Assembly (NCBI RefSeq): GCF_036507355.1
Contig: NZ_AP027877.1
Direction: 5' to 3' (one strand)
DNA: 64,000 bases
Origin: Escherichia coli
GTDB lineage: Bacteria; Pseudomonadota; Gammaproteobacteria; Enterobacterales; Enterobacteriaceae
Shown here in pieces: positions 31,492 to 34,400 of the stretch. A program made the position numbers. Position 1 is the stretch's first letter. The number at the start of each line of letters is the position of its first letter.

Positions 31492-34400
31492 TAGGGTAAT
31501 ATTAAATCGGAACATTTACATCGCGGAATGTAAAATTTAAATAAAAAGGACTCTTCCATGAGCCAAAATTCCTGAAATCTTAAGGGTAAGATAAAAGGTC
31601 TTAATCAGAATGACACGTTTTATTAATAAATAAAGCTATTCTTTCATTGCTGTGTTTTTCTTTACAAAAGTAATCCTTGCTATGGGTGGTTAATCATGCG
31701 TTAATGGTGTTCTGGTTTGTTACAAATTTATCTGAAGCAGTCATTGTTATAATTTTATTATTTGTACCTCTTGAGATTTCCTTGTTGGTTTTTCTCTCTG
31801 ATATTTTTTTTCGGACCATTCTGCCCAAGGGCTAATTTCTTCAAAAGGTAATAATTATGTCTAACAAAATGACTGGTTTAGTGAAATGGTTTAACCCTGA
31901 AAAAGGTTTTGGTTTCATCACGCCGAAAGATGGCAGCAAAGATGTGTTTGTCCATTTCTCAGCAATTCAGAGCAACGATTTCAAAACATTAACTGAGAAT
32001 CAGGAAGTTGAATTTGGTATTGAGAACGGACCTAAAGGTCCTGCCGCTGTTCATGTAGTGGCGCTTTGAGGTAGACAATATTACAAACCATATTCACTTT
32101 AGATGCCCGTGTTGTCATGGTTCCCAGTATAGAACATCATCTTTTGATGTTTCTGACATGAATCCTTTCGGGGCAAAATGTATCTTTTGTAAATCAATGA
32201 TGATTACATTTGATAATATTTCACAATACTTAAATGCCAGCCGTCTGTCGTTGGATTTGAAAAAGTGAAAATGAAGGCTCCTTCGGGAGCTTTTTTGCTT
32301 GGTGTCTATTCGATGGATACTCACATACTACGGTAACATCATGAAAAAAATCATAGTTTTTTTTAACTCTGAACCAGCAGTGGTAGTGCCAGCGATGACT
32401 GGAGTTAACACCATCATGCGTGAATATCCAAATGGCGAAAAAACACACCTTACTGTAATGGCCGCAGGGTTTCCATCTCTGACCGGAGATCATAAAGTCA
32501 TTTATGTAGCCGCGGATCGACATGTTACTTCAGAAGAAATTCTGGAAGCAGCAATAAGGCTCTTGAGTTGATTTGATGCTATTGCATTGATAATTCAGGA
32601 AAATTCTCTTTGTCTGTTTGTGTAAAATTTAGACTATCGTATGTTGATTATTGCGATGTTTCATCTTATCTTTTACACGTTTGCACCATATAATCGACTT
32701 ACTGTGTAACTGGAAAGTCATAACAGACTAAAAGAGGAAATGATGAATATTGAAAACTTAAAAACAAAAGCAGAAGCAGATATTTCTGAATATATAACAA
32801 AAAAATTATTGAACTTAAGAAAAAGACCGGGAAAGAAGTTACCAGTATTCAGTTTACCGCACGGGAAAAAATGACGGGTCTTGAAAGCTATGATGTCAAG
32901 ATTAATTTAATCTGATGTATTCAATAATAAAATTTATCCATAAACCTCGTTTTTACGGGGTTTTGTTATATTTGAATGGTTCCGAATATCTAAATCACAA
33001 TTGTTGATGATTTTTATTAAACCAATGCAGTCCGGCTCAGGAGTGAGAGAAGCCGGACGTTATGGTTTAGCGTGGTAAGATCTGTGTAGTTTTCTGGATG
33101 CTTTCAGTAAATAGTAATGAATCATCAAAGGTATAGTAATATCTTTTTTGTTCGTGGATATTTGTAACCCACCGAAAAACTCCTGCTTTAGCAAGGTTTC
33201 TTCTGTATTCCTGAAATGTGATCTCTCTGGATTTCAGCTTATTAGAGGTCGTTTCTATAAGATGCCTATCCTTTGAAAATTTGACAGACACAATGTTTTT
33301 TAGGCCCTTTAATAACACTGTATTATCATTTTTTAATACAATATGAACATTCTCTGTGGCTAAATAGTAAATGTAATGTGAGACATTGTGACGTTTTAGC
33401 TCAGAATAAAACCATTGATAGTTTAAATCGTTTCGAACTTTATCAAATATTTGTTTAAAAATGACTACCTGATCCATAGATAAACCTTCCATGTGATATG
33501 AGGGGGCGTAGTCTGCACGATTATCTAAATTGCTTCAATCTGGTCTGACCTGTTTTCTGAGCAATTCAGTAATGTCACTCTTTTCTTTGTTTGCTTCAGA
33601 AGAAACTCTTTTTTCTGAGCACAGTCTCCGGCGGCAGGCTTCAATGACCCAGGCTGAGAAATTCCCGGACCCTTTTTGCTCAAGAGCGATGTTAATTTGT
33701 TCAATCATTTGGTTAGGAAAGCGGATGTTGCGGGTTGTTGTTCTGCGGGTTCTGTTCTTCGTTGACATGAGGTTGCCCCGTATTCAGTGTCGCTGATTTG
33801 TATTGTCTGAAGTTGTTTTTACGTTAAGTTGATGCAGATCAATTAATACGATACCTGCGTCATAATTGATTATTTGACGTGGTTTGATGGCCTCCACGCA
33901 CGTTGTGATATGTAGATGATAATCATTATCACTTTACGGGTCCTTTCCGGTGATCCGACAGGTTACGGGGCGGCGACCTCGCGGGTTTTCGCTATTTATG
34001 AAAATTTTCCGGTTTAAGGTGTTTCCGTTCTTCTTCGTCGTAACTTAATGTTTTTATTTAAAATACCCCCTGAAAAGAAAGGAAACGACAGGTGCTGAAA
34101 GCGAGCTTTTTGGCCTCTGTCGTTTCCTTTCTCTGTTTTTGTCCGTGGAATGAGCAATGGAAGTCAACAAAAAGCAGCTGGCTGACATTTTCGGTGCGAG
34201 TATCCGTACCATTCAGAACTGGCAGGAACAGGGAATGCCCGTTCTGCGAGGCGGTGGCAAGGGTAATGAGGTGCTTTATGACTCTGCCGCCGTTATAAGA
34301 TGGTATGCCGAAAGGGATGCTGAAATTGAGAACGAAAAGCTGCGCCGGGAAGTTGAAGAACTGCGGCAGGCCAGCGAGACAGATCTCCAGCCAGGGACTA

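Follow-up and report, generated by a model that had tools for sequence, protein, structure and literature searches.

The gnsB locus lies in a Qin-type lambdoid prophage of the Escherichia coli contig NZ_AP027877.1 (assembly GCF_036507355.1), from which we analysed a stretch of 64,000 nucleotides, referred to here as the window and numbered from its first base. On the 5′ side of the site are essD, ydfR, rrrQ, rzpQ, cspI, ynfQ, ynfR and ynfN; on the 3′ side lie ydfO and ynfO, encoded on the opposite strand, and beyond them nohA, a Nu1-type small terminase gene. This is the setting of a gnsB-type gene, after the lysis cassette and cspI-ynfQ-ynfR-ynfN and before ydfO and the terminase; complete lambdoid phages also carry gnsB. 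The following features were read at the locus:

32743–32915, plus strand: gnsB pseudogene, the former 57-aa coding sequence, 173 nt versus 174
32799–32805, plus strand: seven-A homopolymer (A7) at which the single base is missing; intact alleles read A8 here
32743–32874, plus strand: frame-0 open reading frame of 43 aa plus stop, joining the first 21 residues of GnsB to a basic out-of-frame tail of 22
32805–32915, plus strand: −1 frame segment, GnsB residues 22–57 (IIELKKK...KINLI) with the original stop
32734–32737, plus strand: Shine-Dalgarno-like GAGG, read from the sequence
32942–32973, plus strand: intrinsic-terminator-like hairpin (32942–32963) with a T-rich tail, 3′ of gnsB; one site versus 0.2 expected in shuffles

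The tract at 32799–32805 reads as exactly AAAAAAA. In a DNA alignment with the K-12-type gene, one missing A was the sole difference across gnsB, and the original prediction, of a gene broken by a single-base deletion in a poly-A run, was borne out. It had further proposed that the A7 run joins two reading frames, with which the sequence and both translations agree. Frame 0, read from the ATG at 32743 (or from the ATG at 32740), gives MNIENLKTKAEADISEYITKK and then the tail LLNLRKRPGKKLPVFSLPHGKK, with a stop at 32872–32874; in this frame the tract forms the heptamer A_AAA_AAA (codons ACA AAA AAA, next TTA). The −1 frame from 32805 gives IIELKKKTGKEVTSIQFTAREKMTGLESYDVKINLI, the last 36 residues of GnsB, and runs through a stop ending at 32915. 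Adding one A to the tract brings back the 57-aa GnsB (21 + 36 = 57). Of the two residue counts given in advance, the C-terminal 36 stood, while the N-terminal 22 needs correction to 21 when counted from 32743, and holds only from the ATG at 32740. The start at 32743 is favoured over that at 32740 because GAGG is spaced 5 nt from the former and only 2 nt from the latter; the 57-aa start is also the one used by PGAP and UniProt. A consensus scan of 32500–33100 found no sigma-70 promoter-like site.

We compared the two pieces and the repaired protein with the Pfam family PF08178 (GnsAB_toxin; profile length 54, curated threshold 27 bits). The 43-aa product matched profile positions 1–32 (50.4 bits, E = 2e-13) and the −1 piece positions 22–54 (75.5 bits, E = 3e-21), so that both halves matched the family far beyond chance, in line with the likeness to GnsA noted at the outset. 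With one A restored, the 57-aa protein anticipated at the outset filled the whole profile (positions 1–54 of 54, 120.3 bits), and it aligned with the GnsA structures 4XO1/4XO2 over residues 1–56 (E = 5e-20). No NCBIfam model matched GnsB. In the window no single open reading frame of about 57 aa spans the PF08178 domain, which is divided between frame 0 (residues 1–21) and frame −1 (residues 22–57). The window gnsB is a pseudogene of the family rather than an intact GnsA/GnsB member.

The Qin gnsB of K-12 (ydfY, b1550; UniProt GNSB_ECOLI, 57 aa) has the same nucleotides outside the tract, the same neighbours and the same Pfam family, but carries A8, whereas the window carries A7 and loses the frame after residue 21. 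GnsB is prophage-borne, whereas its paralogue GnsA (yccL) is chromosomal, encoded outside Qin and outside the window. GnsA has Ala-Gln-Lys where GnsB has Thr-Lys-Lys and, because of this replacement in the protein, gnsA should be unable to contain the A8 tract. As reported in papers citing Sugai 2001, overexpression of gnsA or gnsB gives the same phenotype, an increase in unsaturated fatty acids, and suppresses fabA6(Ts) and the secG null mutation. The literature pairs GnsA with YmcE as a toxin–antitoxin system, and reports more unsaturated fatty acids when gnsA is present in multicopy.

A frameshifted gnsB is not novel; public annotation already contains and flags it. The exact 43-aa product is deposited as BED22376.1, EGB38208.1 and many other records, and was found on at least 1,000 contigs. 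Where other genomes have this very A7 sequence, PGAP labels it a ‘frameshifted’ GnsA/GnsB pseudogene (for example, ER1709 DQ225_RS18255); the allele is the same and the locus shows no difference. Some of these records carry further shortened homopolymers, a sign of error, whereas the window does not.

A comparison with a reference gnsB had been set as a check on the reading. K-12 MG1655 has A8 with the frame unbroken, not an A7 run within an intact frame. Among complete E. coli genomes (the RefSeq set searched, of which the window's own chromosome was not a member), the tract was A8 in about 1,400, A7 in 36 and A9 in four. All 36 A7 genomes were 100% identical to the window over 361 bp; K-12 MG1655 and most others matched the 362-bp A8 version. 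In a large assembly collection, the A7 product of the variant with Asn at position 5 (Asn5, N5) occurred in 2,216 blocks versus 58,140 for the intact form (3.7%), and that of the Asp5 (D5) variant in 298 blocks versus 11,965 (2.4%). The sources of A7 included draft genomes, metagenome contigs with SPAdes names and Logan assemblies of sequencing runs. The diverged gnsB allele of phage 2H10 (93% protein identity) has A8.

To place these alleles on their backgrounds, we aligned 1.3 kb around gnsB from 36 sequences (the window and 35 fetched loci). At least five haplotypes, otherwise identical or nearly so, exist in both A7 and A8 versions, and both tract lengths were seen in the K-12 type, a second Asn5 type, three Asp5 types and the window's own type, where the A8 partner is L030. 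Because several haplotypes have both, A7 has arisen, or has been called, repeatedly. The A7 of the window is one case of a recurrent polymorphism at the A8 tract. Two other histories were considered and rejected: a single ancestral A7 lineage, since at least five haplotypes include A7, which marks no one clade, and A7 as the ancestral state, since A8 is found in 96–97% of alleles and in the diverged phage allele and gives the frame shared with GnsA.

The alternative that survives best is that the A7 of the window is an artefact, the consensus having under-called the homopolymer by one base in a strain whose gnsB is truly A8 and intact. We consider this unlikely. Speaking for it, L030, the closest relative covering gnsB, has A8. 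This contig covers window positions 28330–41075. Within the 7.3 kb surrounding gnsB it has three SNPs relative to the window, and more SNPs cluster in the tail-fibre region; over 12,747 bp the two differ by a single indel, the gnsB A-run. If the A7 is real, its near-identical but still A8 relative means that the change from A8 to A7 would be very recent within the lineage. A search anchored on the exact proteins YdfJ, QuuQ, TfaQ and YdeA found no same-lineage contig covering gnsB with A7. Only L030 spans the gene; same-lineage contigs are present on both sides of it, and break at csp paralogues, at the tail-fibre repeat and at IS1.

Against an under-call stands the state of the rest of the window, which we compared with four same-lineage assemblies (ERR3330519, GCA_905398585.1, GCA_044688185.1 and SRR17480487). 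Positions 43175–64000 (20,826 bp) matched the first three at 99.96–99.97% identity with 0 gaps, and positions 36197–41107 (4,911 bp) matched the Logan contig L037 at 100% identity, again with 0 gaps. Over about 25.7 kb, a stretch that holds an A8 run and several 7-base runs, there were no indels versus the four assemblies. Closer to gnsB, seven of the seven other homopolymer runs of at least 7 bases that were checked are at consensus length in the window. Moreover, numerous assemblies made in other projects carry gnsB A7 independently, with all their other checked runs clean. As an internal quality check we also used an intergenic T7 at 48570–48576, which is T8 in more distant E. coli; because three same-lineage assemblies share T7, it is a true lineage-specific state.

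The caveat of the original prediction that homopolymers are sequencing-error hotspots proved justified for the databases, where many A7 calls co-occur with other shortened homopolymers. Another shortened coding homopolymer lay within about 3 kb at 6/17 examined A7 loci versus 0/18 A8 loci (P = 0.008, Fisher test). The extra shortened runs were in ynfN, rzpQ or the holin gene essD, and contractions clustered in particular assemblies, namely ER1709 and the loci with several shortened runs (L003, L004, L005, L008, L009 and L060). When loci were instead picked for a shortened rzpQ A8 run (n = 10), at least four also had gnsB A7. Contigs under 5 kb made up 75% of A7 blocks versus 35% of A8 blocks. 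In ER1709, gnsB and ynfN are both ‘frameshifted’; because we take this strain to be a K-12 derivative, its frameshifts are likely to be errors. Some database gnsB A7 calls are probably homopolymer sequencing errors. Other A7 assemblies are clean: L010–L012, three separate assembly records with one common A7 haplotype, have no other anomalous run, and SPAdes-named metagenome and Logan contigs carry A7 with every other checked run at consensus length. Such assemblies indicate that the A7 allele is also genuinely present in nature.

As a control we took the A8 run of rzpQ (31076–31083), 1.7 kb upstream. Here A7 was found in 919 blocks versus 55,344 (1.6%), and these blocks were skewed towards short contigs like those of gnsB A7, an enrichment in both genes that favours under-calling as the source of some calls. 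Frameshift rates of 2.4–3.7% for gnsB and 1.6% for rzpQ are of the same order of magnitude, with technical errors in both and, because the control behaves roughly alike, no gnsB-specific selection is needed. The rzpQ A8 is intact in the window; its A7 form leaves a 140-aa, N-terminally truncated RzpQ, and assemblies with this shortening often have gnsB A7 as well.

Two more runs lie at the start of ynfN, an A7 at 32344–32350 and a T8 at 32357–32364 (ATG AAAAAAA TCATAG TTTTTTTT), and both are intact in the window. In ER1709, LT883142, L008 and L060, one or both are one base short and the gene is annotated ‘frameshifted’; the ynfN runs are a useful marker of assembly homopolymer error. The intergenic T8 upstream of cspI (31804–31811) occurs naturally as T7, T8 or T9 among relatives, its length following the haplotype whether gnsB is A7 or A8, and a run-length difference is therefore not always an error.

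Taken with the evidence on assembly quality, it is likely that the A7 of the window is a genuine slippage deletion, a judgement that compares real A7 alleles, at a frequency near 3% in the population, with the visibly low error rate of the assembly. We infer that replication slippage in the bacterium, not assembly error, was the cause. The affected gene would be a typical gnsB, a 57-aa moron gene of the GnsA/GnsB family carried by Qin-type lambdoid prophages between cspI-ynfQ-ynfR-ynfN and ydfO. Replication slippage would most likely have removed one A from the A8 tract inside the gene. Translation is then predicted to depart from the GnsB frame after Lys21 and to end 22 unrelated residues later, and the conserved C-terminal two thirds (FTAREKMTGLESYDVKI) would no longer be made, leaving a pseudogene. 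Loss of GnsB function is expected for the A7 allele because its product keeps only the first 21 residues and lacks the best-conserved part of the domain.

If the deletion is genuine, the strain probably lacks functional GnsB; this prophage protein is non-essential, and its overexpression alters the fatty-acid composition of the membrane. The relevance beyond correct annotation is slight, this being an ordinary homopolymer-frameshift pseudogene. More generally, the A8 tracts of gnsB and rzpQ are recurrent frameshift sites, and the database entries for a ‘frameshifted gnsB’ (a few percent) are a mix of real alleles and homopolymer sequencing errors, which nearby shortened runs in the same assembly offer a quick way of telling apart.

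Other readings accept the deletion and give it a use. It is improbable that the gnsB A8 is a selected on/off tract with a leaky A7 ‘off’ state, in which heptamer slippage by the ribosome or RNA polymerase remakes wild-type GnsB; if true, ‘pseudogene’ strains would keep a low, tunable dose of GnsB. Still less probable is recoding proper, in which A7 would yield full-length GnsB by −1 ribosomal frameshifting or by an extra A from RNA polymerase, whether programmed or tolerated. The junction does hold a slippery heptamer of the form X_XXY_YYZ, A_AAA_AAA in the zero frame, and a −1 slip on ACA AAA AAA continues with ATT ATT GAA, which is wild-type GnsB. In E. coli, −1 frameshifting at A_AAA_AAA exceeds 0.10% even where no stimulator assists, and the heptamer is frequent among IS1/IS3 elements (PMC4066793). 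The −1 sites of IS1/IS3-family transposases (A_AAA_AAA or A_AAA_AAG) share with gnsB A7 the heptamer, its frame and a meaningful −1 product, and the window itself has an IS3-family element with TTA AAA AAA GCC at its orfA/orfB overlap.

Unlike those sites, gnsB A7 has neither a stimulatory structure nor a conserved arrangement, and is a mutation of a gene that normally has one frame. We found no −1 stimulator: the downstream 75 nt have a minimum free energy of −6.5 kcal/mol, worse than 193/200 shuffles (z = +1.6), and the 20 nt that precede the heptamer contain no Shine-Dalgarno-like GGAG or AGGA. With 96–97% of alleles plain A8 and A7 scattered over haplotypes, the two-frame arrangement is not conserved. 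Productive bacterial transcriptional slippage is typically found at 9-A runs (PMC1088944). The comparable frameshift frequency of the rzpQ A8 (1.6%) again calls for no special selection. The expected yield of full-length protein is of the order of 0.1–1%, and any rescue of gnsB A7 would be a trace, not a programmed product.

Least probable of all is a contingency locus, with the A tract as a selected, reversible switch, on at A8 and off at A7 or A9, for a prophage small toxin or membrane-lipid modulator: strains do differ in coding tract length, with A7, A8 and A9 all natural and recurrent on many backgrounds, but off alleles make up no more than a few percent, part of them technical, the control A8 tract in rzpQ is similar in behaviour, and A8 is short for a bacterial contingency tract. 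On the other side, the diverged phage allele retains A8 although E. coli genes are depleted of 7-A runs (PMC4066793).

Several other features were recorded in the window. The IS3-family element of the Qin prophage lies on the minus strand at about 22387–23540, with orfA at 23256–23540 and orfB at 22387–23199 (HTH_Tnp_1 and rve domains); the slippery sequence in its overlap is at 23289–23295, where A_AAA_AAA stands in the usual programmed −1 setting. Downstream of gnsB, ydfO (33067–33492, minus strand) has a longest open reading frame of 141 aa from an upstream ATG, and most annotations start it at 136 aa; the exact 141-aa form of YdfO is recorded on one short ENA contig only. The prophage late region (34157–36993) is decayed. 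Its Nu1-type small terminase gene is intact (34157–34702) and is followed by open reading frames of 120 and 272 aa resembling a terminase and tail-fibre remnant, a tail-fibre assembly gene (35730–36305) and a Pin-type invertase on the minus strand (36403–36993). The cluster of tail-fibre SNPs versus L030 suggests exchange among prophage copies.

Farther along, a 768-bp IS1 (41081–41848; typical ends GGTGATGCTGCCAACTTACTGAT ... AAGTTGGAGTCATTACC) is inserted in ydfI and flanked by a 9-bp target duplication, TAGCTTGTT, at 41072–41080 and 41849–41857. The ydfI open reading frame is 466 aa in the window versus 486 aa in relatives. L030 and same-lineage contigs end at the IS1 site in ydfI and, because they end at the insertion point, the insertion is probably common to the lineage.
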